Below, one piece after another: positions 8,987 through 53,871 of a stretch of DNA of 64,000 bases (position 1 is its first letter; each line of letters opens with the position of its first letter). Where the stretch lies: positions 6,345 to 70,344 of the forward strand of contig JADHSC010000005.1 of assembly GCA_016777125.1 (NCBI GenBank). The letters are read 5' to 3'. A model generated the notes under the pieces. That model saw nothing but the letters and a program-made list of their open reading frames with translations, made no database searches and was not told where the DNA came from. A program made the position numbers and the translations under genes. Source of the stretch: Candidatus Poseidoniaceae archaeon (GTDB lineage Archaea > Thermoplasmatota > Poseidoniia > Poseidoniales > Poseidoniaceae).

Positions 8987-8990
8987 TATA

Positions 8991-9635: not shown

Positions 9636-9695
9636 TATACGTTGAAACACATTACCCATAGCGATAAATGCGTCTTATAACGGAGGAGAAGTGTG

Positions 9696-14177: not shown

Positions 14178-14202
14178 TTCGTAAACAGGAAAGGACATCC
14201 TT

Positions 14203-17112: not shown

Positions 17113-17240
17113 AGTACGGATTTTGGCATTTTGGAACCCCTCCATCAAGCACTGTTTTACGCGTGGTTGACTGGGAACGCTTATGGAGGGTATTCAAGTC
17201 GGATTATTTAGAGAGCGCATGCTTTCTGAGGCGATGTATA

Positions 17241-17708: not shown

Positions 17709-17717
17709 GGTGAGATC

Positions 17718-18311
17718 ATGGCAGAATCTGGAGAGAATTATACCGCATTCAATAGCCGAGCACTTGTTGAAGTGGTCGGTGACGTAACTGATGAAGCACT
17801 CAAGGCAACGAAGATCAAACAACTTCTTTCAGTCCTTGCAGGCCGATTTTTCAACTGGGGAGGGCGTAAATCCCTCTTCACCCTTCACTTGGGAATCAAG
17901 TGCTGTGCTATTGAGATGGCAGCAGCAGCAACCCCTCGTTTTGACGGAGACCGTTTCGGTGTCTTGTTCCGTTCATCACCACGTCAATCCGACGTACTTC
18001 TTGTCAATGGGCCAATCAGTAAGAAGTTCGCTGACAAAGTCGTTCGTCTCTGGGAGCAAATGCCAGAACCGAAATACTGTATCGCAATGGGTGAATGTGC
18101 TATTTCAGGCGGCCCTTACTTCCAATCTTACAACATTCTCGAAGGAGTCGACACTGTCATTCCCGTAGACGTTTACGTCCCGGGTTGCCCACCTCGTCCA
18201 GAAGCTCTCATCGACGGCTTTGGCCTTCTCAGAGAGAAAATCATTCGAATTGGTGGTGCGCCAAGCACAGGCCGAGATGGTGAGAAACCAGTGATCGTAG
18301 GAGAGGACTGA
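17718..18311 (+). CDS. nuoB: NADH-quinone oxidoreductase subunit B (20 kDa, N2 cluster)
   Basis: Motifs CCAIEM, GPISKK, CIAMGECAISGGPY and VPGCPPRPE. TGAGGTGAG RBS upstream. Confidence 0.9.
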   Translation: MAESGENYTAFNSRALVEVVGDVTDEALKATKIKQLLSVLAGRFFNWGGRKSLFTLHLGIKCCAIEMAAAATPRFDGDRFGVLFRSSPRQSDVLLVNGPISKKFADKVVRLWEQMPEPKYCIAMGECAISGGPYFQSYNILEGVDTVIPVDVYVPGCPPRPEALIDGFGLLREKIIRIGGAPSTGRDGEKPVIVGED

Positions 18312-18312
18312 A

Positions 18313-18963
18313 ATGGGTATGAGCATCACTTCAGAACAAAATGAGGCAGCAGCTTCAGCCTTCCTTGAACAAGCCGAAGAGCGATTTGGAGGCTCTGGCG
18401 TAACCGTCTCAATCGAACATCACAGCAATGCTGTGAAATTTGCATTCGTCCGTATGACTTGTCCACCACAACACTGGATTGCATTGGCTAAGTGGATGCG
18501 ATTCGATGCAGGAATCAACTACTGTTCGATGGTTACAGGAACGCATTATCCTGAAGGAGGAGATCGCACATGGGGCCTAGTATACCATTTCCTACGACAA
18601 CCAATTCGTGATGTTGAACCGTTCACCTCTGATGTTTTGAAAGCAGAAAGCCTTGAAGGAATGGATATTCCTCTTGAAGTTGAAGTTCTCATAGACCTAC
18701 CTGACGGCAGAGAGCCATCTGTGCCAAGCATTCAATCCATATGGATTGGAGCGGATTGGAATGAAAAGGAGACATGGGATCTTGTAGGAATCAAATTTGA
18801 AGGTCATGAAAACATGCACCGTGTCCTCAATCCTCACGACAGTCCCGAAGGATTCCATCCACTGCAAAAGCAACATAAAATTCGATATCATGATTACAAT
18901 GAAATGTATGATGACGCACAAGGTTTCGTGCGAAAGCCGGCAGATGAGGGCCGGGTAAAGTGA
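18313..18963 (+). CDS. nuoC: NADH-quinone oxidoreductase subunit C (30 kDa)
   Basis: Lies between nuoB and nuoD. Has the NuoC-like C-terminal HRVLNPHDSPEGFHPLQK. Confidence 0.8.
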   Translation: MGMSITSEQNEAAASAFLEQAEERFGGSGVTVSIEHHSNAVKFAFVRMTCPPQHWIALAKWMRFDAGINYCSMVTGTHYPEGGDRTWGLVYHFLRQPIRDVEPFTSDVLKAESLEGMDIPLEVEVLIDLPDGREPSVPSIQSIWIGADWNEKETWDLVGIKFEGHENMHRVLNPHDSPEGFHPLQKQHKIRYHDYNEMYDDAQGFVRKPADEGRVK

Positions 18964-18972
18964 GGTGATATC

Positions 18973-20112
18973 ATGGCACAAATGTGGATTACAATGGGGC
19001 CTCAACATCCAATGACGCATGGTCTTTGGACACTTCGCGTCAAGGTTGATGGTGAAACAGTTGTCGATACTGAAGCTGAACTTGGCTACATCCATCGCGG
19101 CGTTGAAAAGATTGCAGAAGCACGAGACTTCACACAAGTTACACCCTACTGCGATCGTCTCTGTTACGTCAGTGCAATGACCTGGGCAAATTCCTACATT
19201 TACGCTGCTGAAGACCTTCTTGAGGTCGAAGTTCCAGAACGAGCAGAATACATTCGTTTGATCTCTGCAGAAATTCAGAGACTTGCCTCTCACCTGATGT
19301 GGCTTGGAGCGTTTGGACCCGATATTGGTAACCTCACACTCATGACATGGTGCATGAGAGACAGAGAAATGTTCCTCGATTTGTTGCAAGAACTTGGCGG
19401 TTCTCGAATGCACTACAACTATCCTCGTATAGGTGGAGTCAAGCGAGATCTCCCTGTTGGCTTTGCTGACAGAACCCGCGCTAAAGTCAAGTTGTTCGAG
19501 CAGAGAATCAAAGAATACGAAATGATGCTTGATCAATCAACCATTTGGCTGGTCCGCCTCCAAGGAGTCGGTTATTCTCGAGCAGAAGATATGGTTAATT
19601 CCGGTGTTTCAGGACCAAACGTTCGTGCTGCTGGTGTAAACTATGACGTTCGTTGGGCCCACCCATATTCGGTCTATGATCAAGTTGACTGGGAGCCTGC
19701 TGTTGAGAAGCCAACCTCTGTCAAAGGAGCAGATTGCTACGATCGATACCGTGTCCGAATGGAAGAAATGGTTCAGTCCTGTAAGATGGTTCTTGATGCA
19801 TTGGATAAGATTCCTGGTGGCGCGAACACACACTACAGCACTGGCGATGAGATGATTCTGACAAAGGCCCCAACGCGTGCCCCAGAAGGCGCAACTGGAT
19901 TCAGTAACTACGAATGTACTCGTGGTGCTTCACAATTTTATATCCAAGGAGGCGGTGATGGCCGTGGAAAGAATCCTTATCGGCTCTCAATCCGTTCTCC
20001 TATGTTCATAACAATTCCATACGTAGCTAAGACGATGATCGGCTACAAGGTTGCAGATATTCCTGCGATTATGGGAAGCTTTGACCCATGTATTGGAGAA
20101 ACAGATCGTTGA
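18973..20112 (+). CDS. nuoD: NADH-quinone oxidoreductase subunit D (49 kDa)
   Basis: N-terminus MGPQHPMTHGLWTLRVKVDGETVVDTEAELGYIHRGVEKIAE. TGAGGTGAT RBS overlaps the nuoC stop. Confidence 0.9.
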   Translation: MAQMWITMGPQHPMTHGLWTLRVKVDGETVVDTEAELGYIHRGVEKIAEARDFTQVTPYCDRLCYVSAMTWANSYIYAAEDLLEVEVPERAEYIRLISAEIQRLASHLMWLGAFGPDIGNLTLMTWCMRDREMFLDLLQELGGSRMHYNYPRIGGVKRDLPVGFADRTRAKVKLFEQRIKEYEMMLDQSTIWLVRLQGVGYSRAEDMVNSGVSGPNVRAAGVNYDVRWAHPYSVYDQVDWEPAVEKPTSVKGADCYDRYRVRMEEMVQSCKMVLDALDKIPGGANTHYSTGDEMILTKAPTRAPEGATGFSNYECTRGASQFYIQGGGDGRGKNPYRLSIRSPMFITIPYVAKTMIGYKVADIPAIMGSFDPCIGETDR

Positions 20113-20121
20113 GGTGATACT

Positions 20122-21633
20122 ATGGATGACAAGTACGACCTGAGAAGTTTGTTCATTGGCGAGGACAGTCTCGTTCATGATTTGGTTACCTCTGGACTTG
20201 AGGGAACACCTCTTGAAGACAGTTCCTCAAACATTGCGTTCGGCCTCGGTACGTTTGCAGTGGTCAACATTGTGTTCTTACTCCTCTTCTTTTCCCAATT
20301 CGCAATCCTATGGATTGAGAGAAAAGCCGTTGCTCGTATGAATGATCGTCGCGGTGCAACCACTGCACTTCGTTCTCTCTGGGTCGGAGAAAACGGTGTA
20401 ACTGGAGGAGAATGGTGGAACATGCTTCCATTCGGTCTCGGACGTCCAGTTGGCGCAGTCAACAAATGGTTGAACCAGCGCTTTGGTAATCGTTCTGAAG
20501 AATTCGAAACAGTTGACCGTGTCAACAATCGTTCGTGGATGGGATTGAGTATTCTCCCTGGATTCTTCCAAAACGTTGCTGATGGAATGAAATTCCTCAT
20601 CAAAGAACACATGGTTCCACGTCGGGCTGACAAACTCATTTTCGAGGTTTCACCGTTCCTCATCGTTTCGACGACACTCATCATCCTTGGTATGATTCCA
20701 CTTTCCAGTGGCATATATGCAACCAACCCTGACCTTTCTATTCTCTACATCATCGCTATCTTTGGAATCGCTCCAATCGGTGTCTTCTTTGCTGGCTGGG
20801 CTTCAAACAACAAGTACACACTCATCGGTGGTATTCGTTCAGCAGCACAACTTACTGCATATGAGATTCCATTGCTGTTATCATTACTTGCAGTTGCAAT
20901 GTTGAGCGGAACGTTCAACATTATTGACAGCGTTCACTTCCAACATACTGCTGGTGCATGGAATCTCTTTTTGATGCCACTGGGAGCAGCACTGTTCCTT
21001 ATCACAATGATTGCAGAAGTAGAACGTGTTCCATTCGATATGCCAGAAGCTGAAGCTGAACTGGTCGAAGGATGGTGGACAGAATACGGTGGTATGCGAT
21101 TTGGTATGCTGTTCATGGCAGAATACATCCGCACCTATGCTGCATGTTTCCTCTTCACTCACTTCTTCCTTGGTGGATGGCACCTTCCATTCCAAGGAAC
21201 AATTGGTCAAATTCCATACTTAGGAGATGCGTACCTGTTGATTCCTGGTGCGTTGGTTGTTCTGATCAAGGCGTGGCTTGTTTTCCTCATCGTCTTCGTA
21301 TGGGCTCGATTCTCTCTTGCACGTATCCGTACTGACCAAATCCTTGAATTCGGTTGGAGAATGCTCCTACCTCTTGCAGTTTTGCAAGTTGTTCTCGCAG
21401 CATTGTACCGATTGTACCTCTTCGATGTTGAAGGAATGTCAGACACCGTTGCTGGTGGAACTGCATGGGAAGCCTTTGGAATCCCATTCCTCATCCCAGC
21501 ACTAACCACTATCCTTTGGTTGGCTATCTTTTTCCTATTGCTCAATGATACGGGCAAGAATGAACACGAAGAACGTATGTATCACGTTCAGACAGTGCAG
21601 CCCGCTGGTACCCATACTCCTGGGCAGGACTGA
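20122..21633 (+). CDS. nuoH: NADH-quinone oxidoreductase subunit H (with insertions)
   Basis: The ILWIERKAVARMNDRRG region corresponds to the NuoH ERK..G..Q.R.GP motif. Eight or more TM helices. About 150 aa longer than typical NuoH. Confidence 0.8.
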   Translation: MDDKYDLRSLFIGEDSLVHDLVTSGLEGTPLEDSSSNIAFGLGTFAVVNIVFLLLFFSQFAILWIERKAVARMNDRRGATTALRSLWVGENGVTGGEWWNMLPFGLGRPVGAVNKWLNQRFGNRSEEFETVDRVNNRSWMGLSILPGFFQNVADGMKFLIKEHMVPRRADKLIFEVSPFLIVSTTLIILGMIPLSSGIYATNPDLSILYIIAIFGIAPIGVFFAGWASNNKYTLIGGIRSAAQLTAYEIPLLLSLLAVAMLSGTFNIIDSVHFQHTAGAWNLFLMPLGAALFLITMIAEVERVPFDMPEAEAELVEGWWTEYGGMRFGMLFMAEYIRTYAACFLFTHFFLGGWHLPFQGTIGQIPYLGDAYLLIPGALVVLIKAWLVFLIVFVWARFSLARIRTDQILEFGWRMLLPLAVLQVVLAALYRLYLFDVEGMSDTVAGGTAWEAFGIPFLIPALTTILWLAIFFLLLNDTGKNEHEERMYHVQTVQPAGTHTPGQD

Positions 21634-21644
21634 GGTGATTGAAT

Positions 21645-23006
21645 ATGCCAACACACCCTCAAGCAAAACCGAACTTCCGAAATCTCTTCTGGTATCCGTT
21701 TAAGATTACTCTGATTACTGCCTTGAGAACATTCCCTCTCATGGGTAAATTGTTTCCAAAGAAATTGGGTATGGGCTATCACAATACAACCCATCCAGAG
21801 TTTTTGGATGAAGCGAGTGCACAACGTGCAAAGAGTCGTTCACAATACAATGACATCACCAATCAAGAATTTGCTCCTGACCGAGTTACATCCGATCTCT
21901 TCCCGACACTTTGGAAGCCTCAAACAGTTCAGTACCCGTACGAACGCCTTGAGGACATGGAGCCTTGGCTCTTCGTTCCAGGTAATTACAATGGCCGTAT
22001 TGGTGTCATTTGGGAAACCTGTACTGCATGTAAGATGTGTGTGAACATCTGTCCAAACGACTGTCTTCACATGACAACAGAACTTCGTGTTGACGTTCTC
22101 GACAACGCAGAAGGTGAATACGATGGATACGGTGCTGAATTGGAAGTTGGCGGCTATGCTGCTAAGTTCCGTGAAGAAGTTGTAGAAGAACTCGAATCAT
22201 TCGATCTCATCACTGCTCACACGGCACCTCCTGCAGAATGGCGCTTTGGACAAGTCCTAGATCTGAGTGGCAGCACTGCTACTGTTCGCTGGAATGACTC
22301 TGGCCAAGAAGAAATGATTGAGCAATCTGATTTACGAACTGCTGATAATCAAATCGTATCAGGTCGTATTGACATTGGACGATGTATGTTCTGTGGTCTC
22401 TGCATGGAAGCATGTGGTTTCACTTCATTCTTCATGACCAACGAATACGATGGAATGTCAGGCTTCTCTCGACAAGACCTTTGGTTTGATGCAAGCAGAA
22501 CACGTGTTCTTCCTTCCGTTCATCAAGAAGCTGTTGACGGAGAACTTGCAAAGCGTGCTACAAAGGAACGAGATAAGCGTGCAAAGAAGGCTGCTAAGGC
22601 TGCAAAAGCCGCTGTACCCGAAGTAGTGGTCGTAGAACCACCTCAAGTTGTCGAAGTAAAGGCCGAAGTCAAGGCTGAGACTGAAGACGACAAGCCCATG
22701 AGTAAAGAGGAAAAGAAAGCAGCCGATTTGCAACGAGTCAAGGAACGGTCAAAAAACATTGATTTCAATATTCTCGGAACGGCTAGTGCTGAAGAAAAAG
22801 ATGACCTTCAAAGCATCAAGGGCATCGGGCCGTTTATCGAAGAGAAATTAAACGCTCTCGGCATCTATACGTTCTCACAAGTCAGTAAAATGACCAGTGA
22901 GTTAGAAGATCAAGTCAACGAAGCCATCGAATTCTTCCCTGGTCGTGTCAAGCGGGACGAATGGACCAATCAAGCCAGCGACCTGCTCGAGAAGGGGGAT
23001 GCCTGA
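21645..23006 (+). CDS. nuoI: NADH-quinone oxidoreductase subunit I (2x[4Fe-4S]) with a ~290-aa extension: Lys/Ala/Glu-rich linker plus C-terminal helix-hairpin-helix module
   Basis: Ferredoxin motifs CTACKMCVNICPNDC and CMFCGLCMEACG. C-terminal KRAKKAAKAAKAA...LQSIKGIGPFIEEKLNALGIYTFSQV. ATG lies 5 nt after GAGGTGAT. Confidence 0.8.
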   Translation: MPTHPQAKPNFRNLFWYPFKITLITALRTFPLMGKLFPKKLGMGYHNTTHPEFLDEASAQRAKSRSQYNDITNQEFAPDRVTSDLFPTLWKPQTVQYPYERLEDMEPWLFVPGNYNGRIGVIWETCTACKMCVNICPNDCLHMTTELRVDVLDNAEGEYDGYGAELEVGGYAAKFREEVVEELESFDLITAHTAPPAEWRFGQVLDLSGSTATVRWNDSGQEEMIEQSDLRTADNQIVSGRIDIGRCMFCGLCMEACGFTSFFMTNEYDGMSGFSRQDLWFDASRTRVLPSVHQEAVDGELAKRATKERDKRAKKAAKAAKAAVPEVVVVEPPQVVEVKAEVKAETEDDKPMSKEEKKAADLQRVKERSKNIDFNILGTASAEEKDDLQSIKGIGPFIEEKLNALGIYTFSQVSKMTSELEDQVNEAIEFFPGRVKRDEWTNQASDLLEKGDA

Positions 23007-23008
23007 AA

Positions 23009-23283
23009 TGGACGTCGCCTCGGCCACTGAAACCATCATCTTCTTCATTTTTGCAACGATTACTATTCTCGGTGCATTGGGGCTCATTTACGCACAACGA
23101 GTTGCTCATTCGATGCTTTCTCTGATTTTCTGTTTCATGGCAGTTTCAGGAATCTTCATCCTTATGGGTGCTGAATTCCTTGCAGCAATTCAAATTCTCG
23201 TTTATCTAGCGAGTGTAGGATTGGTGGTTCTCTTCGGTATTATGCTGACTCGACGCCAAATTCAGGAGGAGGATTTCGAATGA
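23009..23283 (+). CDS. nuoJ1: NADH-quinone oxidoreductase subunit J, part 1
   Basis: 91-aa protein with two TM helices, immediately after nuoI. The split J1/J2 arrangement is typical of Halobacteria. Confidence 0.65.
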
Positions 23284-23549
23284 GATTAATGTCAACACTA
23301 ACTCGACTTGGACTGATTCTTCTAGCTGGTGCAATGATCTCAGTGTTGGGGACTTCCACAGTTTGGGATACTGATTCTTCAGAAGAAATCACAACAAATG
23401 ATCTTGCGAATACAATGCTCGATGATTGGGCACTTCCTCTCTTGATTCTTGGTATCCTTATGGCAATGGCCATGATGGGTGCTGCTTACCTCGTTCGTGA
23501 TGAACGTCGTGAAAACCTTGAGTGGGAACAGAGAGGTGAAGACGTATGA
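23280..23549 (+). CDS. nuoJ2: NADH-quinone oxidoreductase subunit J, part 2
   Basis: ATGA overlap with nuoJ1. 89-aa protein with two TM helices. Confidence 0.6.
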   Translation: MRLMSTLTRLGLILLAGAMISVLGTSTVWDTDSSEEITTNDLANTMLDDWALPLLILGILMAMAMMGAAYLVRDERRENLEWEQRGEDV

Positions 23550-23848
23550 TTGATCCAGCATGGGTAAGCGTACTTTCCGCTTTGTTGTTTACGATTGGGC
23601 TATGGGGCGCTTTCACTCGTAAGAACGCTATTGTCGTTCTGATGTGCCTTGAATTGATACTTAACGCAGCCAACCTGCAATTCGTTGCAGCGGCCATTCA
23701 GCACGGAGATGCTACAGGATGGGTTTACGCCATCTTCGCAATCGCCATTGCAGCCTCAGAGGTTGCAATCGGTCTTGCCATCTTCCTTGCAATGTATGGT
23801 CAACACGAATCCATCTCTCTTGACGATGTTAATTTATTGAAGCACTGA
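23546..23848 (+). CDS. nuoK: NADH-quinone oxidoreductase subunit K
   Basis: 100-aa protein with three TM helices. LMCLELILNAANLQFVAA is the NuoK signature. ATGA overlap with nuoJ2. Confidence 0.85.
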   Translation: MIDPAWVSVLSALLFTIGLWGAFTRKNAIVVLMCLELILNAANLQFVAAAIQHGDATGWVYAIFAIAIAASEVAIGLAIFLAMYGQHESISLDDVNLLKH

Positions 23849-23857
23849 GGTGATTTT

Positions 23858-26104
23858 ATGGGAACAACAACAGACATACCAGAAATCACATCTTCCTTTA
23901 CGGAATATGCCATCTTCATCGTTCTTTTACCGATGCTTGCATTCCCAGTCATTCTCTTCCTTGGACGATTGTTCAATGGAAACGAAACCTGGGTTAAGTC
24001 TGCAAAAGAAGGTGGACTCATCGCTCTACCAATTATGGTTGCAAGTTTCATTCTTTCATTAATTCTCATTGTCGAATTTATCGGAAGTGGAACGGGCTCA
24101 TACTACATTGGTGATTGGCTTAGTTTCGGATGGATTGGAGCAGATGGAATGACCATCGAGGAGGAGGTCTTTGGTGTCGGAATTTACATCGATCACGTTA
24201 CAGTGATGCTCTTATTCGTCGCATCATTCCTCTGTATGCTCATCAATATCTTCAGTATTGGATACATGAATACAGATCCAGTAAACGACAACAGAAACCA
24301 TCGTTTCTATGCTGAATTCGTTCTTTTCTGTTCAGGTATGCTCGGAATGGTTCTTGCTGACTCCTTCCTTTGGTTGTTTATCTTCTGGGAATTAATGGGT
24401 CTATGTTCCTATCTTCTCATTGGATTTTACTACGAACGACCAAGTGCAGCTTATGCTGCAAAGAAAGCATTTCTTACAACCCGTGTTGGTGACGTTTTCC
24501 TCGTCATTGGATTGGTTATGCTTTGGAATATGTTTGGCTCCCTTGACTACTCAGTCGTCTTCAACCCCGATAACATTGCAGCAGTTGATGCAGGCGAATT
24601 ACAAATGGCGCTTGGAATGATGTTCATTGGTGCAGTTGGTAAATCTGCTCAATTCCCACTCCACGTTTGGCTTCCAGACGCAATGGAAGGGCCAACACCC
24701 GTTTCCGCTCTTATTCACGCTGCAACCATGGTCAACGCAGGATTGTATCTCGTTGCCCGTATGTTCCCATTCTTTGGAGCCCCTGCAATGGCCGGCGAAC
24801 TGGTTGATCTTGCATTCATCATCGCAGCAATCGGTGGAATTACCGCCGTCATGGCTGCTGCAATCGCCTTTGTTCAAGATGATTTGAAGAAAGTACTCGC
24901 ATATTCTACGATGAGTCAACTCGCATACATCTTCACAGGACTTGGTGCAGCGTTATGGCTCGCTAACACACCAGGAATGGAAAAGTACGCAATCGTCGCC
25001 TTTGGTGCAGCTCTGTTCCACCTCTTTAACCACGCAATGGCAAAAGGGATGCTGTTCATGGCAAGCGGTTCAGTCATTCACGAAATGCATCATGCACATC
25101 ATGACGTCCACCATCACGACGACCATGGAGATGACCACGGAGACGACCACAATGACGATCACCACGATGAATTCGATGCTCAATCGATGTCAAATATGGG
25201 CGGTCTTGCATCCAAGATGCCAATTACTGCTACAGCAATGCTTGTAGGTTCAGCTTCAATCATGGGTCTACCACTGATTGGTGGATTCTGGTCCAAAGAA
25301 GGTATCATCGCCAACGCTTGGAGAGTTGCCCTTGAAGATCCGCGATTCTTCCTACCTGCTTTCTGTGTTCTTCTTGGTGCAGCAATGACTGGTTTCTATA
25401 TGTCGAGAATGTGGCTCAAGACCTTTGCAGGAAAGCCAAAGACAGAAGTTGCAGAACATGTCCATGAACAAACACCATGGATTCCTATTCCTTTGGTTAC
25501 ATTGACATTCGTCACGCTCTCAAGCGTCATTCTTGCGGGAATGATGTTTACACATTGGTCAAGTGATAGTGGGTATGCATTCTTCAGTGAGAAGGGATTG
25601 ATCGATGGTCTGATTTACGAATTTGAACACGTCTTCCTCAATTCTGATGCGTTCTACTTCGTACTGACCTATGTTGCAATCTTCATCGGAGCCATCGTTG
25701 GACCTGGTCTTGCAATGGCATTGTATGGTGGAGCACTCAAAGATGGTGAGAAAGCCAAGGGATGGATGCAACCGATCATCAATCTCTCTGCTCGTGTAAA
25801 CGAGAAGCGTGGTTTCGACAACAGCGCTTGGGCTGATTCAAGCCTATCAGTTGCCCTCAAGGAACGACTCTACTTCGACAAATGGTACGATACTGCAATG
25901 CTCAAACTCGTTGCAGGATTTGCTGTTCTCAGCGCAACCTTCGATCGTAAGGTCATCGATGGAACAATCAAGACCATCGAACGTTCTTCACAGAAGATTT
26001 CACTCAGCGTTCGTAAACTTACAACAGGGTCTGCTCGTGATTACATCATGATGGCGGCATTAGGTGTCCTTGTCATCTATGCAATGCTGGAGGTGATGAT
26101 TTGA
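23858..26104 (+). CDS. nuoL: NADH-quinone oxidoreductase subunit L (antiporter-like), with His/Asp-rich loop insertion
   Basis: 748-aa polytopic protein with conserved Mrp-antiporter-like regions (WLPDAMEGPTPVSALIHAATMV). TGAGGTGAT RBS. Insertion HEMHHAHHDVHHHDDHGDDHGDDHNDDHHDEF. Confidence 0.9.
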   Translation: MGTTTDIPEITSSFTEYAIFIVLLPMLAFPVILFLGRLFNGNETWVKSAKEGGLIALPIMVASFILSLILIVEFIGSGTGSYYIGDWLSFGWIGADGMTIEEEVFGVGIYIDHVTVMLLFVASFLCMLINIFSIGYMNTDPVNDNRNHRFYAEFVLFCSGMLGMVLADSFLWLFIFWELMGLCSYLLIGFYYERPSAAYAAKKAFLTTRVGDVFLVIGLVMLWNMFGSLDYSVVFNPDNIAAVDAGELQMALGMMFIGAVGKSAQFPLHVWLPDAMEGPTPVSALIHAATMVNAGLYLVARMFPFFGAPAMAGELVDLAFIIAAIGGITAVMAAAIAFVQDDLKKVLAYSTMSQLAYIFTGLGAALWLANTPGMEKYAIVAFGAALFHLFNHAMAKGMLFMASGSVIHEMHHAHHDVHHHDDHGDDHGDDHNDDHHDEFDAQSMSNMGGLASKMPITATAMLVGSASIMGLPLIGGFWSKEGIIANAWRVALEDPRFFLPAFCVLLGAAMTGFYMSRMWLKTFAGKPKTEVAEHVHEQTPWIPIPLVTLTFVTLSSVILAGMMFTHWSSDSGYAFFSEKGLIDGLIYEFEHVFLNSDAFYFVLTYVAIFIGAIVGPGLAMALYGGALKDGEKAKGWMQPIINLSARVNEKRGFDNSAWADSSLSVALKERLYFDKWYDTAMLKLVAGFAVLSATFDRKVIDGTIKTIERSSQKISLSVRKLTTGSARDYIMMAALGVLVIYAMLEVMI

Positions 26105-27660
26105 GCATCGATTACCTATCACTTATGGTCGTCTTGCCAATCATGGCAAGTATCTTCTTGCTTGTTCTTACATCACGTCTTTCAGAAGGGGCCCGAAGAA
26201 AATTCGACTCCTCTATCCGAATGGCAAGTCTTGGAATTACATTGGCAATGTTTGCTCTGGCAACGCTCATGTTCTTCGGAGAAATTGGCAACGTTGATTG
26301 GACCGGTATCGCCTTCAACAACTTTGAGTTCAGCGAATCCTATGTCTGGATTGAACCGCTTGGAATCGAATGGAGTGTCGGTGTCGACGGCCTGTCCTTC
26401 CCAATGGTTTGGCTGACAACACTTCTCTTACCAATTACGATCATCGCAACATGGAACGAAAAGGCAGGAGCAACCTACTTCCCGCTTATTCTCATGATGG
26501 GTGGTGCACTTATCGGCGTCTTTGTCGCACTTGACATGTTCATGTTCTACGTGTTCTGGGAATTGACCTTGATTCCAATGTTCTTCCTTATCCTCAAATG
26601 GGGTGGGAAAGACAGAAAGTATGCTGCTCAGAAGTTCTTCATCTACACCTTCACAGCATCTGTTGTCATGCTTCTAGGTTTGTTCACCATGTATTTCCTC
26701 ATGGATACACAAACCTTTTCGATGGTAGATATGGTTACTGAAGCAAATGGAGCAAACAGCAGCGGTGTCTGGCTTGGTCTTGAAGTTCAGAAAGCACTCT
26801 TCATTATGCTCATGCTTGGATTCCTTGTGAAACTCCCAGCTGCACCATTCCATACTTGGCTGCCCGATGCTCACGTACAAGCGCCTACAGGCGGTTCAAT
26901 GCTGCTTGCTGGTGTTATGCTGAAGATGGGTGCTTACGGAATGTTCAGACTTCCAATCTCTCTCTTCCCACATGCTCTTGAGGAATTCAGATTCATCATC
27001 ATGTTGATTGGTCTGATCTCTCTTGTATGGGGAGCAATCGTTTGTCTTGGACAAACCAACCTCAAGAAGATGGTAGCATATTCCTCCGTTTCACACATGG
27101 GTATCATTCTACTCGGTATCGCAAGTATGCAACCTCTTGGATGGGCAGCAGCTCTCTTCATGATGTTCGCTCACGGAATCATCAGCCCAATGCTCTTCGC
27201 AGTTTGTGGTGCATTCAAGCACCACTATCACAGCATGGAAATTGGTGCAATGCGTGGAATGGCAAAACATTCCCCGTGGCTTGCAACGAGCATGATGTTT
27301 GGATGGATGGCTTCTCTAGGTCTTCCTCTCCTTGCTGGATTCGTTGCTGAATTGATGCTTATGGTTGCTTACTGGCATGCTTATGGATGGTGGATCCTCT
27401 TACCAGGTCTTGTTCTTGCTCTTACCGCAGCATACTACCTCTGGTCGATGCAACGAACTATCTTCGAAGGTGGAGATGAAACTCAACCTCCAGAAAGTCT
27501 GCATGGCGAGCCAGTTCCTGATATCGCGAACTCAGAGAAGTTGGCAATGCTTCTCCTTGCTGGATTTACAATCCTCTTCGGAATCATGCCATGGATTTTC
27601 CTTGATATGATGAGCGAATGGACGATAAATGCCATGAAGTTCCTAGGGTTTGGTGTTTGA
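26101..27660 (+). CDS. nuoM: NADH-quinone oxidoreductase subunit M
   Basis: TTG start 4-nt overlapping the nuoL stop, preceded by GGAGGTGATGA. Contains WLPDAHVQAPTGGSMLLAGVMLKMG. Confidence 0.85.
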   Translation: MSIDYLSLMVVLPIMASIFLLVLTSRLSEGARRKFDSSIRMASLGITLAMFALATLMFFGEIGNVDWTGIAFNNFEFSESYVWIEPLGIEWSVGVDGLSFPMVWLTTLLLPITIIATWNEKAGATYFPLILMMGGALIGVFVALDMFMFYVFWELTLIPMFFLILKWGGKDRKYAAQKFFIYTFTASVVMLLGLFTMYFLMDTQTFSMVDMVTEANGANSSGVWLGLEVQKALFIMLMLGFLVKLPAAPFHTWLPDAHVQAPTGGSMLLAGVMLKMGAYGMFRLPISLFPHALEEFRFIIMLIGLISLVWGAIVCLGQTNLKKMVAYSSVSHMGIILLGIASMQPLGWAAALFMMFAHGIISPMLFAVCGAFKHHYHSMEIGAMRGMAKHSPWLATSMMFGWMASLGLPLLAGFVAELMLMVAYWHAYGWWILLPGLVLALTAAYYLWSMQRTIFEGGDETQPPESLHGEPVPDIANSEKLAMLLLAGFTILFGIMPWIFLDMMSEWTINAMKFLGFGV

Positions 27661-27661
27661 A

Positions 27662-29341
27662 ATGAGTGAGAATACATTTGACATGGATTTAATCCAAACG
27701 CTCGGTCCTGAACTCACAGTCTTTGCGGGTCTTCTTCTAATCATGATCGTTCCAAATCTTGGAAACGGTAAATTCCGCATCCCAGGAACTCAAATTGAAC
27801 TTCCTTGGTTCCTTGGTGGAACTCGATACAAGGCAGTCTCTTCTCCTCGTTTACCGGGACTACTAGCAGTATTGACCATGCTGCTTGCACTGATACAGGT
27901 CATTTGGTATCTTATCGACTCAAGTTCCGTCAGTGAACAAGTAACAAGTGAAAGCGGTTATGAGATTCTCAAAGTGAACATGTTCTCTCGACTATTTGAG
28001 GGTATTTTCTTCGCAGCACTCTTGCTTGCAGCTCTCGCATCGCTTGACAGACTTCCAACTGGCTCAGTAAAGAGCGACGATATTGATGTCCTTTTCAACA
28101 ACCGACGACAAGCAGATTTCTACATCCTGATGCTCACATCTGCACTTGGAATGAGCGTCGTTGCACTTGCTCAAGACATGTTCGTTCTCTTCATTGGACT
28201 TGAACTCGCATCCTTCTCAACATATGTTTTGGTTGCCTTCCACAAGGAAACCCGAGCAGGTTCTGAAGGTGGTGCAAAATACTTCATCGTCGGTTCAGTT
28301 GCCTCCGCAGTAGGTCTCTATGGTCTTTCAATGCTCTATCTCTGGGCTGGTTCATTACAATTCGATGTGCTCGCTGAAACATGGGCTGCTAATGGAGCAA
28401 ACTCGCTGAGCATGATGGCGCTTGGATTTGTACTCGTTGGATTTGCATTCAAGATCAGTGCAGCACCGTTCCACTTCGCGGCACCAGATGCATATTCTGG
28501 AGCGAACAGTCCAGTTGCAGGTGTTCTTGCAACAGCCAGCAAAGCAATGGGAATGCTCGGACTTATGCGTGTTCTATTGTTGATTACAATCCCTGATGCA
28601 ACTGAAGATGGCTCCGCTGTTTGGATTGGCTTACTCGGCGTAATGGCTGCAGTGACCATGACATGGGGTAATATCGCAGCCCTCGGCAGCGAGAATCCAA
28701 AGCGTATGCTTGCCTACTCTTCCGTTGCTCATGCAGGATACATGCTTGCAGCATTGACTGCAATTGGAGCATGGAATTGGGGTCTTGTTGAAAACTCTGG
28801 TAACGCAAAGGACGTTGTCGTCGCAGCACTTCTCTTCCACATGGTCGTTCTTGTCTTCTTCAAACTCGGAGCCTTCCTCGTATTGGGTCTACTCGAAATG
28901 GAAGGCGGCGCATCTCGCTTATCTTCTCTCTCTGGACTTGGAAAGAGAGAACCATTGATTGCAGTCGCTATGTTCCTGTTCATGATCTCTCTTGCAGGCG
29001 TTCCACCAATGGCTGGATTCCTCTCAAAACTCCTCGTCATCATGGGAATTGTTGAGGTTGCTACAGGAACTGGTTCTCTGGATTCACTCTTGGATGCTCA
29101 TTGGGTTTGGTGGCTTGCACTCCTCATGGTTCTCAACAGCGCAATTTCGATGTTCTATTATCTGCGCGTTGGTGTTGTCATGTACTTCCATGAGCCTGAA
29201 GAAGGCCGACAAGGACCTCTTGCTTCTGGTGTTTCAATTCGACTTGCAATTGCAATCTGTGCAATTGGAACAGTTGCCTTTGGACTGGTTGGTGGCGAGT
29301 TAATCGACCTCTGCCGTGATGCAGCCCAATCCCTCGGTTGA
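27662..29341 (+). CDS. nuoN: NADH-quinone oxidoreductase subunit N
   Basis: Polytopic protein with the FHFAAPDAYSGANSPVAGVLATASK antiporter-like motif. ATG at 27662 chosen; TTG 27650 is an alternative start. Confidence 0.8.
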   Translation: MSENTFDMDLIQTLGPELTVFAGLLLIMIVPNLGNGKFRIPGTQIELPWFLGGTRYKAVSSPRLPGLLAVLTMLLALIQVIWYLIDSSSVSEQVTSESGYEILKVNMFSRLFEGIFFAALLLAALASLDRLPTGSVKSDDIDVLFNNRRQADFYILMLTSALGMSVVALAQDMFVLFIGLELASFSTYVLVAFHKETRAGSEGGAKYFIVGSVASAVGLYGLSMLYLWAGSLQFDVLAETWAANGANSLSMMALGFVLVGFAFKISAAPFHFAAPDAYSGANSPVAGVLATASKAMGMLGLMRVLLLITIPDATEDGSAVWIGLLGVMAAVTMTWGNIAALGSENPKRMLAYSSVAHAGYMLAALTAIGAWNWGLVENSGNAKDVVVAALLFHMVVLVFFKLGAFLVLGLLEMEGGASRLSSLSGLGKREPLIAVAMFLFMISLAGVPPMAGFLSKLLVIMGIVEVATGTGSLDSLLDAHWVWWLALLMVLNSAISMFYYLRVGVVMYFHEPEEGRQGPLASGVSIRLAIAICAIGTVAFGLVGGELIDLCRDAAQSLG

Positions 29342-29392
29342 AGAGGGTGCCTTCAAGAGGGGTTGACCTCTCCGTTTACATGGTGAGCCTCA

Positions 29393-30055
29393 ATGGGAAG
29401 ACGTCATGAAGAAAAAGTGGACGTAGAAGAACTCGCCCGTCTGGAAAATCCAGAGGGTTCCTCGGGAAAGATTCGTGTAAAGCTTCCAAACGGTGGTAAG
29501 AAGCGCGGAGAGTTTGGATTCAAGGGCGAAATGTTTGCTCTTGCTGAAGAGATTCTCGGTGGTCGCCGTGTAACAGTCCTCTGTGCTGATGGGGAGACCC
29601 GTATGGCACGTATACCAGGGAAAATGCGTCGTCGACAATGGGTTCGTGAAGGCGACCTCATCATTGTCTGGCCATGGGATTTCCAAGATTCAAAAGCTGA
29701 TGTAAAGCATCGTTATACAAAGACTCAGGCTATGTATTTGTCAAGAAAGCAAGTGCTTCCGGAAGTTGTTGATATGTTTGGCATGAATGATCGTGTTGAC
29801 GATGATGACGACGATGACTTGTTCGGTATCTCTGATGCACCTGAGGTCGTTGAAGAAGACGATGATGAAGATCTGTTTGGTGATGATGACGACGATGATG
29901 ACGATTTGTTTGGAAGCGATGATTCTGTCGAAGAAGTCGCCGAAGAGGCCGTTGAAGAGCCAGTAGTGGTTGAGGAACCAGCAGAATCAGTTGAACCAGA
30001 ACCGCTTGATGATGATGACGATGACGACGATGATATCGACGCATTGTTCGCTTAA
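29393..30055 (+). CDS. eif1a: translation initiation factor aIF-1A with long poly-acidic C-terminal tail
   Basis: S1/OB core RVTVLCADGETRMARIPGKMRRRQWVREGDLIIVWPWDFQDSKADVKHRY. About 110-aa tail with three DDDD-DLFG repeats, ending DDDDDDDDIDALFA. Confidence 0.85.
   Translation: MGRRHEEKVDVEELARLENPEGSSGKIRVKLPNGGKKRGEFGFKGEMFALAEEILGGRRVTVLCADGETRMARIPGKMRRRQWVREGDLIIVWPWDFQDSKADVKHRYTKTQAMYLSRKQVLPEVVDMFGMNDRVDDDDDDDLFGISDAPEVVEEDDDEDLFGDDDDDDDDLFGSDDSVEEVAEEAVEEPVVVEEPAESVEPEPLDDDDDDDDDIDALFA
29790..30050. repeat. GAT/GAC/GAA codon low-complexity repeat encoding the poly-Asp/Glu tail of aIF-1A
   Basis: Runs of gatgatgacgacgatgac are visible directly in the DNA. Confidence 0.7.
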
Positions 30056-30109: not shown

Positions 30110-31105
30110 ATGTCTCGTTCAAATGATGATTGGGATGAATTGAGTGAGCGTACTCCTCAACGTCGTAAAACCCGCAAGAAACACAACAAGCGTCCAATGT
30201 CTTTGGATGATAAAGCAGACGCAGATTTTGATGAGCGACATGCTTCAAAGTTTGTTGAAGACTTAGCGGGAAAAAATAGTTCATTCAATTGGATGAAGGA
30301 TGAGCGAAACAAGCGCATGTTCAAGAAAATTGAAAACCGTATTCAAGGCGCTATGGGCACTGGGTCCTACGATTGGGTCGATAGAAGAACGTTCGACCAA
30401 GTCTTTGACAGACTGACCTTAATGTCACTTTACAAGATGATGAATTCAGGAATACTGGATACACTCGATTTCCCAATCGCTCGAGGCAAAGAAGCTCACG
30501 TATTCCATGGTACAGACCATGATGGCCAATCGGTCGCAGTGAAAATCTTCCATACCTCAAATGCGGTATTCAAGAATTTGATGCAGTACATTGAGGGCGA
30601 TCCTCGTTTCGGAGGACTTCGTCGACGTCATCGAGATCTTGTCGATATTTGGGTGCGAAAAGAACATCGTAATTTGACACGTTTGCATCGTTGGGGCTTA
30701 CCTGTCCCGCGTCCTATTGCTATTCAAAAGAATATTCTTATCATGGAATATCTCGGTAGTGAAATACAACCCTCTCCTAAATTACGAGATGTTCGAATCG
30801 AAAACCCTCAACCAGTGTTCGATGAAATGCTTGAGTTCTTGGCAGTTTCTTGGCAGAAAGCTGATTTAGTTCATGGTGACTTTTCTCCGTACAATATTTT
30901 GTGGCATAATGGTGGACCAATTGTTATTGATGTTGGTCAGGGGGTTGTTCAACACCATCCGAAGGCAAAGGAATTCCTTGTACGAGATGTAACTCGGTTG
31001 GTTGAATGGGCGAATAAAAATGGTATTGACATAACATTAGCAGATGCAATGTATGATGTTCTGGAAATGGACCTATCACACGTTCATCGAACCGAAGAAG
31101 AATGA
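30110..31105 (+). CDS. rio1: RIO-type serine/threonine protein kinase (Rio1-like)
   Basis: RIO domain motifs GKEAHVF, IMEYLG and LVHGDFSPYNILW. Sits directly downstream of aIF-1A, an arrangement conserved in archaea. Confidence 0.85.
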   Translation: MSRSNDDWDELSERTPQRRKTRKKHNKRPMSLDDKADADFDERHASKFVEDLAGKNSSFNWMKDERNKRMFKKIENRIQGAMGTGSYDWVDRRTFDQVFDRLTLMSLYKMMNSGILDTLDFPIARGKEAHVFHGTDHDGQSVAVKIFHTSNAVFKNLMQYIEGDPRFGGLRRRHRDLVDIWVRKEHRNLTRLHRWGLPVPRPIAIQKNILIMEYLGSEIQPSPKLRDVRIENPQPVFDEMLEFLAVSWQKADLVHGDFSPYNILWHNGGPIVIDVGQGVVQHHPKAKEFLVRDVTRLVEWANKNGIDITLADAMYDVLEMDLSHVHRTEEE

Positions 31106-31106
31106 A

Positions 31107-31851
31107 TCATTCTTCTTCCCAAACAATGTGTTCATCTTCAGCCATTTCCATCATATCGATGACGGCTTCACCATCATCAGGATCGACTTGACTCGCTTTG
31201 AGTTTACGGCCTCTTCGTTCACTAACATCAGCTAAACCAGGGACAAGTCCATCGAAACCAGTTGATGGTTCTTCCTTGGATTCTTTAGCTTCAATCGAAT
31301 CTAAAGAACGATTATCGAATTTCATGCGCTTTCTACGACGCTCAAGGAATGAGAGTACTGTTCCGTGTTCTGAACCGCCTGCAAGCATCTCAACGGCTTG
31401 CCGGGCAAGACCAATACTTTCAGCATCACCTACGAGTACAACTGTCGATTTGTAAATTGTAATTTCAACATCGGTTAAGTTTTCAATCAAGCGACGAACT
31501 TTACCTTGACTTCCAATGATTCGAGCACGAATTCTTCGCTGTTGATGAGAACGCTTACCAACGAAATCCTTCAAATCAACCATTTCAAAGAAATTCTCAT
31601 CCTCAAGTAAACGAATTGCTGCTTTTGGAGCCATCCCTCTTCCAATTGCTTTGATGACATCTGGAAACTTTAACGCTTTAATCGGGTCGTAAGAGCCAGG
31701 TTCGCCCCAGACTACTTCCACATCACCCGTCTCAGAATCGATGTGAAATTCTTTTGCTCCGGATGCATTTCGTAGTGACTTTGCAGTCGTACCTTTTGAA
31801 CCGATGAGAACAGCAATTCTGTCCTTTGGAATTCGAGGAAGCCCTTGTCGC
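31107..31851 (-). CDS. KH-domain RNA-binding protein (archaeal Dim2/Pno1-like), acidic C-terminal tail
   Basis: Two KH GxxG loops (IAVLIGSKGTTAKSL and ARIIGSQGKVRRLIE). Start taken at MRQGLPRIPKD. Convergent with rio1. Confidence 0.75.
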
Positions 31852-31879
31852 ATGATTACAACCCACCAGCCGATGTTCT

Positions 31880-33712
31880 TCAATCCCGCTGTTGAAGCCA
31901 AGCTACAACAAAGCCAGCACAAAGGAGTGCAAACATGGTTGGAGCGAACGATGGAACAAGGCCAGGGGAGGAAACGTCAGCACCCGTAACGACCATGTAA
32001 TGGTCGTTGTTTATCTCACTGTTTTCATCGATGAGATTTGAAGGGTCGATACGTACACGCAGGTCATATTGTCCAGTATTTGGAACGGTGTAGTTCCATG
32101 TGAGATATGCTACACCGGTGCCAAGGGAACCTGCAAGAAGTGTTTGTGCTTGCATAACAGTCCATTCTGTTGCTGCATTACGATCGGCAGGAGCAGCTTC
32201 TAAAATCACAGCAACTGATCCAGGATACGCCTTGTTGGAACGGATTTCGCCAGAGATTGTGATGTTACCAAATGTGTCACCGGGACGCACAACAAGTTTG
32301 TTGACGTCAGTTTCAGTCACATTCCAATAGAGGTCGAGTCCTGGCATGACTTGGAATGCTCTAGGTTCTGTTGTTTCGCTGTTTCCAGCTTCGTCTACAA
32401 CAGTCGCTCTAAGCATGAGGTACTGACGAGACTTTGTTGCCCAATTTGCTAATGCAAGGTCTCTATCAAGGCCAGTGCCGGGAACTTCAAGCCATTGGCC
32501 TGAGAGGTCTGGTGTTAGGCCAACACCGTTTAGATCGAATCCATATTGTAATGAAATCTCACTTTCGTCGATACCTGAGAGTAAGTCATACGCTGCAAAG
32601 GAAATGTTGGCTTGACCGACAAGATCGGTTGTAAGTGCATCAACAGTCCATCCCACCATTTCAGGAATAGTGGTGTCAACTTGCACAGTTGCTGTAATTG
32701 TGTTTCCAACGTTACCAACCTTATCCGTTGCTCGTAATTCGAGTGTATGATTTCCCTCTTCAAGCGTAATTGAATGTGTATTCGTGGTGATAGCGGTCCA
32801 TGTTCCAGAATCAATTTTCAGTTCCACAGTCTCGACACCAGATCCAGTTCCATCATTGGCACCATCCAGAACACCAGATAGTTCCACATTTGTAGAGGAT
32901 TGCCATGTTGAACCACTTCCAACTGTGATGGAGGACATGGTTGGTCCAGTACGGTCGATACCAATGAATAATGTCGATGTATTACTCAATCCGGAATCGT
33001 CGTAAACAGTAAGTCGAGGATTCCAAGTTCCTTCAGAAAAACTTCCGCTTGACCAATCCCAGCCGTATGTAAGACTCGACGGTCCATCAGTGGAAGGTGA
33101 CCCAGGTCCTGGGACATTCTGTAGAGTTGCTCTGTTGAAATCATCATCAGAAACACCGTATCGGAATTCTAAGGTACCAGTCTCAGCGATGCTAAACCAT
33201 GCTCTATCAGAACTACTTGTTCCAGCCCCAACATTTGGAGATAGAACAGTGAATGCAGTAATATCAGGGACGTGATTATCAATTGTGAATTCTCCTGTTG
33301 TGGTCAACGTAGAGTCGTCTACATCTGTATCCCAGCCAGTAGCACGCATTGTGTATGTGCCATTCGCAACCGAAGTGGAATCAAAATTGAAGAGCCAAGG
33401 TGTACCTGTGAGATTTGTAAGTGTGGAATATGCACCTCCTTGTGATGCAATTTCGACCAAGATCGAATCAATGGTCCCTGTCCCTGAAATGCTGAACGTA
33501 ATCGTCTTCAATCCTGTAACAGATTCCGATTGAACTGGGCCGTTTGAGAATGCGATACTCGCTGCTGATGAGGAGTGTATTACTGCCTCTTCTTCAAGCT
33601 GTAAATCGTTGTTAATGTCAAGTGGGAAAATGGAAATCAGCAAGAGGGAAATGATGCCGACTGCAACCGCTCTGCCTCCCATGCTTTTCTTACAGATGCG
33701 ACCTCCCTTCAA
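31880..33712 (-). CDS. secreted surface protein with Ig-like/CARDB-like repeats and a C-terminal TM anchor
   Basis: N-terminal signal/anchor AVAVGIISLLLISIFPL. Beta-rich repeats. C-terminus PTMFALLCAGFVVAWLQQRD*. Confidence 0.65.
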   Translation of the reverse strand: MKGGRICKKSMGGRAVAVGIISLLLISIFPLDINNDLQLEEEAVIHSSSAASIAFSNGPVQSESVTGLKTITFSISGTGTIDSILVEIASQGGAYSTLTNLTGTPWLFNFDSTSVANGTYTMRATGWDTDVDDSTLTTTGEFTIDNHVPDITAFTVLSPNVGAGTSSSDRAWFSIAETGTLEFRYGVSDDDFNRATLQNVPGPGSPSTDGPSSLTYGWDWSSGSFSEGTWNPRLTVYDDSGLSNTSTLFIGIDRTGPTMSSITVGSGSTWQSSTNVELSGVLDGANDGTGSGVETVELKIDSGTWTAITTNTHSITLEEGNHTLELRATDKVGNVGNTITATVQVDTTIPEMVGWTVDALTTDLVGQANISFAAYDLLSGIDESEISLQYGFDLNGVGLTPDLSGQWLEVPGTGLDRDLALANWATKSRQYLMLRATVVDEAGNSETTEPRAFQVMPGLDLYWNVTETDVNKLVVRPGDTFGNITISGEIRSNKAYPGSVAVILEAAPADRNAATEWTVMQAQTLLAGSLGTGVAYLTWNYTVPNTGQYDLRVRIDPSNLIDENSEINNDHYMVVTGADVSSPGLVPSFAPTMFALLCAGFVVAWLQQRD

Positions 33713-53867: not shown

Positions 53868-53871
53868 TTCT

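Follow-up and report, generated by a model that had tools for sequence, protein, structure and literature searches.

A motif-bearing acidic tail on the translation initiation factor aIF1A of Poseidoniales, a candidate recruitment arm for aIF5B

The gene for the archaeal translation initiation factor aIF1A was studied in a 64-kb stretch of DNA from a Candidatus Poseidoniaceae archaeon (contig JADHSC010000005.1, positions 6,345 to 70,344 of the forward strand), referred to here as the window. All positions are those of the whole 64-kb window, and residue numbers are those of the encoded aIF1A protein of 220 amino acids. This protein carries a long acidic C-terminal tail with repeated hydrophobic-Phe-Gly motifs and a conserved terminal peptide. 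Our preferred reading, to which we give a probability of roughly 0.4, is that the tail is a lineage-specific, convergently evolved recruitment arm for a translational GTPase, most likely aIF5B. Literature searches with the strings DLFGSD, DDLFG, and DDMFG returned phosphoproteomics matches only; apparently, the tail of Poseidoniales aIF1A is undescribed in the searchable literature.

The open reading frame (ORF) starts with ATG and was assigned to aIF1A by family models. Pfam PF01176 (eIF-1a) matched residues 45-107 (E 5e-20, 71.3 bits against a cut-off of 30.2). The NCBIfam aIF-1A models matched residues 44-125, with scores of 104.1 for TIGR00523 (cut-off 102.9) and 113.1 for NF003084 (cut-off 91). 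The closest solved structure found with phmmer was M. jannaschii aIF1A (1jt8, E 1.5e-22); yeast eIF1A and P. abyssi aIF1A came next. By homology, the factor would bind in the small-subunit A site during initiation. Archaeal aIF1A has about 100 amino acids (PMC7531240), and solved archaeal chains have 102-134. The initial annotation, made from the window alone, had described a 220-residue aIF-1A of about twice the usual archaeal length, and the family models and solved chains bear this out. The parts of the gene are listed below, with the basis of each in brackets. AF2 stands for AlphaFold2, pLDDT for the predicted local distance difference test score, and MGIIb for marine group IIb.

29393..30055, + strand: aIF1A gene, 220 codons plus TAA stop (ORF list, Pfam PF01176, NCBIfam aIF-1A models)
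29382..29386, + strand: Shine-Dalgarno-like GGTGA, 6 nt 5' of the ATG (read from the sequence)
29393..29524, + strand: N-terminal tail, residues 1-44, exceeding solved archaeal aIF1A in length (alignment)
29525..29782, + strand: predicted OB-fold core and C-terminal helix, residues 45-130 (AF2, family models)
29765..29788, + strand: FG motif 1, VVDMFGMN, residues 125-132 (alignments)
29798..29845, + strand: FG motif 2, DDDDDDDLFGISDAPE, residues 136-151 (alignments; MGIIb counterpart 'DD.DDAGIFG')
29852..29923, + strand: FG motifs 3 and 4, EEDDDEDLFG and DDDDDDDDLFGSDD, residues 154-177 (Tandem Repeats Finder, motif counts)
29924..29992, + strand: acidic linker rich in E/V/P/A, residues 178-200, weakly conserved in sequence (alignments, pLDDT 52-63)
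29993..30007, + strand: EPEPL motif, residues 201-205 (alignments)
30008..30052, + strand: terminal module, nine Asp then I215-D-A-L218-F219-A220-COOH (75-species profile, codon usage)

The tail (residues 131-220, 90 residues) contains 33 Asp and 15 Glu, no Lys, and a single Arg, which gives a net charge of -47. The core (residues 1-130) has a net charge of +6 and a pI of 9.7. The poly-acidic C-terminal tail, the three DLFG motifs, and the C-terminal end quoted in the initial annotation could all be read in the translation. The motifs lie at residues 136-147 (DDDDDDDLFGIS), 156-164 (DDDEDLFGD), and 164-176 (DDDDDDDDLFGSD), and the C-terminus, DDDDDDDDDIDALFA, occupies residues 206-220; the terminal peptide of the tail is DDDDDDDIDALFA. 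There are four D-x-FG motifs in the tail region, the additional one being VVDMFGMN at the core junction. FG motifs 3 and 4 are held in a 33-nt tandem duplication at 29851-29913 (1.9 copies, 86% match by Tandem Repeats Finder). In the six frames of the window, the pattern [DE][DE][LMIV]F[GA] occurred four times, three of them within the aIF1A tail. The idea that such motifs are a general habit of the proteome was rejected, as the motif was unique to aIF1A in the window and in related loci.

An AF2 model was built from an alignment of 58 diverse sequences; an earlier alignment of 24 near-identical sequences was uninformative (mean pLDDT 42). Block pLDDT values in the core were 80-96, and at least 91 for residues 51-120, and a helix was predicted in the N-terminal tail at residues 11-18. 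The C-terminal tail had pLDDT values of 52-63, and its only predicted secondary structure was a helical turn within the terminal motif (residues 215-217). When the tail alone was compared to Pfam (E<=10), no meaningful match appeared, and none to Ribosomal_60s. In the model, the tail behaves as an intrinsically disordered region bearing short linear motifs.

The distribution of the tail was followed in two groups, marine group IIa (MGIIa) and MGIIb. The MGIIa set consisted of the best 80 GTDB species-representative loci, about 1.3 Mb of DNA with 76 complete aIF1A genes. The closest homologues were named Candidatus Poseidoniaceae, and the 80 loci carried either Poseidoniales or Poseidonia labels or older 'Euryarchaeota/Methanobacteriota' names of metagenome-assembled genomes. 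The isolates NAT11, NAT68, SAT205, SP143, UBA549, and UBA550 are MGIIa in the supplement of Tully 2019 (PMC6336850). The best 120 clusters at 90% identity were all tailed and 200-231 amino acids long. The tail was seen in all 80 GTDB loci. The 76 complete genes from GTDB species encode 168-234 amino acids, and the tail is intact in 75 of them, the exception being a frameshifted assembly. The MGIIb set was made up of the best 120 homologues in a search that started from P0126, the tailed representative that diverged most (58% identical). These proteins, of which the named ones are Candidatus Thalassarchaeaceae or Thalassarchaeum, have 194-241 amino acids, and all 120 carry the tail in the form ..VD[IV]FG[ST]G.E.WDD.DDAGIFG...EPEPLDDV[TS]DDDIDSLFGPA. 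Since the tail was present in all MGIIa and MGIIb homologues looked at, it is a feature of the whole order Poseidoniales. Absence from close relatives, the finding that the initial annotation had set against its own proposal, was thus not what we saw.

Among the best 150 representatives at 50% identity, out of 1.84 billion such representatives searched, the archaeal-type clusters with such a tail came from Poseidoniales only. The next relatives, with core identities of at most 64%, are 117-150 amino acids long and end in '...LPE.IDVF', '...PEILDIY', and similar sequences. Because these tail-less relatives stop there, the start of the tail coincides exactly with the ancestral C-terminus; in the alignment, the D-hydrophobic-F of FG motif 1 corresponds to the C-terminal end of the tail-less orthologues ('..LPE.IDVF'). 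Many short archaeal aIF1A proteins (P0137, P0139, P0158, P0160, P0194, P0200, and P0217) have ends of the form '...[LI]P[ED]..[IL][DN][IV][FY]-COOH'. Such ends resemble the start of the eukaryotic tail, 'GELPE......DTFG', and tails may have grown out of them.

The tail region is rich in GAT and GAC and is frameshift-prone in assemblies and gene calls. The gene is split, for instance, at positions 3254-4239 of locus L048 (DUJK01000164.1), and some of the 50%-identity representatives among P0122-P0128 are out-of-frame readings of the aIF1A tail repeat ('MMTTMTT...').

The end of the tail was compared residue by residue, with the final small residue counted as position 0. In the 75 MGIIa species, the terminal profile is D(x8)-[DE]-[ILV]-[DEN]-[ADS]-L-F-[GAS], with Leu in 74 of 75 and Phe in 75 of 75, and position -5 is hydrophobic in all MGIIa. 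With the window copy included, Leu at position -2 was found in 75 of 76 genes and was encoded by all six codons (TTG 27, TTA 12, CTG 10, CTC 18, CTA 2, CTT 6). Phe at position -1 was found in 76 of 76 (TTT 45, TTC 31). The terminal motif is under purifying selection, because Leu and Phe stay constant while synonymous sites are saturated. In MGIIb, the terminal motif IDSLFG was found in 107 of 120 proteins and the ending FGPA in all 120. In the 1.3 Mb of Poseidoniales DNA, ORFs ending in [LIVMF]..[LMV]F[GASD] comprised 75 of the 76 aIF1A genes, compared to only 2 among the 3167 other ORFs with 100 or more amino acids. The same ending after an acidic run (eight or more Asp in MGIIa aIF1A) was found in none of the 3167, only in aIF1A.

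Other parts of the tail are conserved to different degrees. FG motif 1 is invariant in the MGIIa alignments and reads VD[IV]FG[ST]G in MGIIb. About 12 residues beyond it lies a second conserved motif, DD..DDLFG in MGIIa and DDAGIFG in MGIIb. The element before the final Asp run is either EPEPL, as in the window and in MGIIb ('EPEPLDDV[TS]DDD'), or 'F.PVEEYP', as in other MGIIa clades. The middle repeats (MGIIa consensus D[VI]DDMFGSD) are present in 1-3 copies, the total number of acidic-run plus hydrophobic-F-G motifs per tail is 2-7 among species, and the linkers show weak sequence conservation.

The varying copy number, the weakly conserved linkers, the tandem duplication behind motifs 3 and 4, and the frameshifted assemblies in the repeat would all be expected if the tail had no specific function. 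It would then be a by-product of an acidic surface-ocean proteome and slippage-prone GAT/GAC repeats, tolerated as a disordered segment and perhaps aiding solubility. However, the tail is kept in more than 300 sequence clusters from two families, the terminal motif stays invariant although synonymous sites are saturated, and comparable C-termini are absent from the roughly 3,200 other ORFs of the same genomes. This explanation is disfavoured because of the codon evidence, and we regard it as very improbable.

The conserved pattern of the terminal motif resembles the C-terminal peptides of the ribosomal P stalk. Both sit at the end of a long flexible arm, where an acidic run leads into hydrophobic-x-x-L-F-G at the C-terminus itself or right beside it. 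The archaeal reference set for this comparison consisted of 249 P1 sequences (106 complete metagenome genes plus a protein search) with ends of the form [EA]GL[GSA][ASE]LFG. The 106 metagenome genes (L081-L200) nearly all end in G-L-x-x-L-F-G, and LFS, LFK, LFGG, and LFGGA were seen once each. With these P1 ends, aIF1A shares the hydrophobic residue at -5, Leu at -2, Phe at -1, and a small residue at 0, which correspond to L103, L106, F107, and G108 of aP1. In P. horikoshii aP1, the binding of aEF1A, aEF2, and aIF5B, and not that of aIF2-gamma, requires L103, L106, and F107 (PMC5887453, PMC6791870). The conserved stalk Phe is buried in the complexes with aEF1A, aEF2, aIF5B, and ABCE1 (PMC5887453, PMC6791870). 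The mean BLOSUM62 score of the last six residues against P1 ends was +14.8 for MGIIa and +18.3 for MGIIb, compared to 22.8 for P1 against P1. The tail motifs also come in several copies per molecule, as stalk peptides do per particle, and this multivalency was counted in favor of the recruitment arm.

Stalk C-terminal peptides bind aIF5B and are thought to help the 30S complex join the 50S subunit (PMC6791870, PMC7531240). Among the known stalk partners, aIF5B alone is on the 30S subunit together with aIF1A (PMC9226500), and for this reason it would be the likeliest target of the tail; other stalk-binding GTPases would be the alternative targets of the tether.

The recruitment arm may work as follows. 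During the evolution of the order, a disordered acidic arm would have grown from the old C-terminus, '..LPE.VD.F'. With the OB core in the A site of the 30S subunit, this polyanionic arm of 50-100 residues would sweep its surroundings and capture the GTPase. The hydrophobic-F-G modules, above all the terminal [ILV]-x-x-L-F-G, would dock in a hydrophobic groove of the GTPase, by analogy with the stalk C-terminal peptides (aP1/aP0 ...GL.ALFG) that recruit aIF5B, aEF1A, aEF2, and ABCE1. The Asp runs would supply long-range electrostatic steering, and the only hydrophobic residues of the tail would enter the groove. Upon subunit joining, the stalk peptides of the 50S subunit would compete for the groove, free the tail, and help aIF1A to be released. 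The outcome would be an independently invented tether between aIF1A and aIF5B, an analogue of the C-terminal tail of eukaryotic eIF1A. The analysis shows the identity of the gene, the tail and its conservation across the order, selection on the motifs, the predicted disorder, and the likeness of the motifs to stalk, eIF1A, and eEF1B peptides. That the tail binds a protein, that this protein is aIF5B, where it binds, and that it hands over to the stalk are all parts that we infer.

Several observations weigh against this proposal. On a strict position matrix of the P1 8-mer, the median score of the aIF1A ends was -1.9 bits. This lies within the top ~1% of the background but far below the 21-24 bits of real P1. 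The score is low because the Gly residues at -6 and -4 that are conserved in P1 are replaced by acidic residues, the two positions being D, E, or N in aIF1A; G102 of aP1 has been reported as required for aEF2 binding (PMC5887453). aIF1A also has neither the P1/P2 dimerisation domain nor a Pfam Ribosomal_60s match. In MGIIb, Pro-Ala follows the motif, and thus the Gly cannot need a free carboxylate. Finally, the terminal peptide also fits the eukaryotic DIDDI motif when shifted by two residues. On the strict P1 matrix, a true stalk peptide was rejected as an identity for the end of the tail, which would be stalk-like in its hydrophobic core and at most a mimic. The fit of the terminal motif to the stalk peptide is at least as good as its fit to DIDDI. 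The carrier differs as well, being an initiation factor on the 30S subunit and not a 50S ribosomal protein. Eukaryotic P1/P2 proteins end in ...DDDMGFGLFD, and archaeal aP1/aP0 in ...EEGLGALFG.

The P1 protein of Poseidoniales itself was also sought. The 1.3 Mb of related loci contained no P1-like or GTPase genes. A DNA-pattern scan of metagenomes for the P1 N-terminus MEY[IV]YA[AS]L gave many marine Thaumarchaeota and no recognisable Poseidoniales, so the Poseidoniales P1 N-terminus probably departs from this near-universal sequence. The most acidic marine P1 candidate, P0283, was rejected for Poseidoniales, being related to Methanosarcinales and anaerobic methanotrophic archaea (ANME). Scans of viral contigs for aIF1A and P1 gave nothing.

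The Poseidoniales protein was next set beside the canonical archaeal and the eukaryotic forms of the factor. Canonical archaeal aIF1A (M. jannaschii 1jt8, P. abyssi 5jb3/7zag) has an OB core 40-55% identical, the same Rio1/KH neighborhood, and presumably the same A-site function. Archaeal aIF1A is said to have no C-terminal tail, and this absence has been used to explain the difference between archaea and eukaryotes in the aIF1A-aIF5B contact (PMC9226500, PMC7531240, PMC5009744). The eukaryotic contact is between the eIF1A tail and eIF5B domain IV, and the tail promotes subunit joining; in P. abyssi, aIF5B reaches aIF1A through its own archaeal-specific C-terminal helix (PMC9226500, PMC5009744, PMC7531240). 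Both eIF1A and aIF1A sit beside e/aIF5B on the small subunit.

The eukaryotic eIF1A tail belongs to the same protein family, starts at the same site directly after the '...LPE' helix, and is likewise disordered and acidic. Its elements come in the same order: LPE, D.FG, a further aromatic or FG motif, and an acidic D-I-D-x-hydrophobic motif. The phmmer alignment with yeast eIF1A extends into the tail, with query residues 23-165 aligned to chain residues 9-152. When 'DIDAL' was compared to the last five residues of 20 eukaryotic eIF1A proteins with a two-residue offset, the mean BLOSUM62 score was +10.5, against 13.3 for the eukaryotic ends among themselves. With the comparison anchored at the C-terminus, the mean was -7.5. 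The eukaryote-type end D-[ILV]-D-[DA]-[ILV] was not found as the last five residues: the archaeal DIDAL-type motif is never last and is followed by the invariant Phe and a small residue (F-[GAS] in 75 of 75 MGIIa), and then by PA in MGIIb. The Poseidoniales tail is also 3-4 times longer (50-100 residues compared to ~25-40) and is confined to one archaeal order whose nearest relatives are tail-less. The initial annotation had called the tail eIF1A-like. Its layout and the extended alignment uphold this description, but the placement of the motif does not.

Near the window, Poseidoniales aIF1A is extended at both ends, as is eukaryotic eIF1A, with an N-terminal insertion as well as the long C-terminal tail. 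The insertion, of eight residues, lies inside GGKKRGEFGFKG (29492-29527, residues 34-45) in the N-terminal tail. It was found in MGIIa close to the window and was absent from other MGIIa clades, MGIIb, and tail-less relatives.

These similarities allow a eukaryote-type explanation, along the lines of the initial annotation, in which the terminal D-I-D-A-L would bind the helical subdomain of aIF5B domain IV and the FG motifs would act near the P site like the FG-containing 'scanning enhancer' repeats SE1/SE2 of yeast eIF1A. In addition to the shared order of elements and the offset score, the interaction of the eIF1A C-terminal tail with eIF5B domain IV is established, and the helical subdomain of this domain is present in archaeal aIF5B (PMC5009744). 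However, the surface used by the eIF1A tail is covered in archaeal aIF5B by the extra C-terminal helix (PMC5009744, PMC7531240), and recent human complexes do not show the DIDDI contact (PMC9226500). Archaea also have neither scanning nor eIF5, and the internal position of DIDAL, with its poor score when anchored at the C-terminus, fits this binding mode badly. We regard this explanation as unlikely.

The initial annotation had also left the choice between a convergent and an ancestral equivalent of the eukaryotic tail. The sequences, among which Asgard were not specifically examined, argue against common descent with the eukaryotic tail and favour convergence, because only Poseidoniales have the tail among the 150 best representatives and their nearest syntenic orthologues, of 118-150 amino acids, are tail-less. 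The ancestral alternative is thus unlikely.

A third similarity was found with an elongation factor. When the tail alone was searched against solved structures with phmmer, the single match was eEF1B-delta (2n51), in which 'EDDDEDLFGDD' aligned to 'EDDDIDLFGSD' with marginal significance (E 0.0068). The acidic region of eEF1B alpha/delta ('DDDIDLFGSD(D/N)EEE') and the MGIIa repeat consensus D[VI]DDMFGSD are nearly the same peptide. The reported partner of this eEF1B region is TCTP, and the Ser of its 'DLFGSDDEEE' is phosphorylated by CK2. In contrast to the aIF1A tail, eEF1B alpha/delta belongs to an exchange factor of eEF1A, has a single internal copy of the motif before its guanine nucleotide exchange factor (GEF) domain, and has no initiation role. 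The GEF domain is absent from aIF1A, and the resemblance is that of a shared short motif only and not one of membership. The tail can be grouped with the 'acidic run + hydrophobic-F-G' peptides of translation proteins, which form a loose class, and it is a strict member of none of the families compared.

The Ser of 'FGSD(D/E)', at 29900-29923 in the window and in the MGIIa repeats, lies in the same acidic context as the eEF1B CK2 site. Given this context and the gene for a RIO-type kinase downstream, phosphorylation of the tail is an idea suggested by analogy. The kinase and the gene beyond it are the conserved neighbors of aIF1A:

30110..31105, + strand: Rio1 kinase gene, conserved neighbor (Pfam RIO1 E 1e-50; synteny)
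31107..31922, - strand: KH-domain gene (arCOG04150, Dim2/Pno1-like), conserved neighbor (TIGR03665 E 5.5e-52; synteny)

Upstream, at 27650-29341, lies a nuoN-like gene for the last NADH-dehydrogenase subunit. The four genes nuoN-aIF1A-Rio1-KH were found together in 70 of the 80 related loci and in one MGIIb contig, Rio1 was the neighbor of aIF1A in 75 of 80, and the tail-less relatives likewise have aIF1A in an aIF1A-Rio1-KH cluster. Because of this shared context, the gene is the ordinary aIF1A orthologue rather than an extra paralogue. The window and the 80 related 20-kb loci contained no second aIF1A copy, whole genomes not having been searched. Gene fusion or mis-annotation was ruled out by the continuous ORF and by the conserved length and synteny in more than 200 clusters.

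All three genes of the cluster are enlarged: aIF1A, Rio1, and KH have 220, 331, and 271 amino acids, compared to 118, 258, and 179 in a tail-less relative (L205 8001-9663). Rio1, whose gene starts 55 nt 3' of aIF1A, is extended N-terminally by ~95 amino acids that include a basic patch, QRRKTRKKHNKR. The KH protein is longer at its C-terminus, by an acidic stretch of ~70 amino acids that ends ...DMMEMAEDEHIVWEEE, and its gene is inverted relative to the tail-less relatives.

These extensions bear on another explanation, in which the tail would not recruit a GTPase at all. One option is that it mimics nucleic acid through its acidic residues and folds onto the basic OB and N-terminal surface, an auto-inhibition that would tune affinity for the 30S subunit. 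Otherwise, it could have another partner, such as Rio1, the KH/Dim2-like protein, or basic ribosomal proteins in small-subunit maturation. The opposite charges of core and tail would suit such folding, and the tail of eukaryotic eIF1A touches the OB domain of the same protein and reduces its affinity for the 40S subunit (PMC5009744). The lineage-specific extensions on all three genes, the basic patch of Rio1, and the CK2-site-like context of the 'FGSD' Ser are also consistent with this explanation. However, charge mimicry leaves the invariant Leu-Phe and the fixed hydrophobic spacing unexplained, and the AF2 model has no docking of the tail on the core, although this is weak evidence. We consider the explanation quite unlikely.

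Further observations concern the surroundings of the gene. A complete-looking nuo operon (17109-29341) runs into the aIF1A gene with a gap of 51 nt. The window also encodes very large secreted or surface proteins of 1581, 1498, 975, and 1208 amino acids (4241-17112 and 53857-57483), which are typical of these archaea. A GenBank metagenome-assembled genome titled 'Verrucomicrobiales bacterium isolate ARS100' (L031, NZEQ01000031.1, 10001-10681) has a typical Poseidoniales nuoN-aIF1A-Rio1-KH locus, and its contig is probably mis-binned.

With its tail, an entire order of archaea that are very abundant in the ocean departs from the rule of a tail-less aIF1A, and the motifs of the tail point to the same class of partner. 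If the tail binds aIF5B, it would offer an independent natural experiment on the usefulness of the 1A-5B tether and a simple recombinant system for the interchangeability of stalk-type peptides and eIF1A-type tails. It would also be a clue to how the eukaryotic tail grew from the short '..LPE..D.F' end that many archaeal aIF1A proteins have. If the tail has another partner, it would represent a layer of translational control that is particular to this lineage, whose members are not yet culturable. The stronger idea, that Poseidoniales aIF1A is a 'portable stalk', is doubtful in our estimate. If true, it would be a convergent archaeal reinvention of the tether between the eIF1A tail and eIF5B, and would suggest that the eIF1A tail, the eEF1B acidic region, and the stalk peptides are one acidic hydrophobic-F-G class that addresses translational GTPases.

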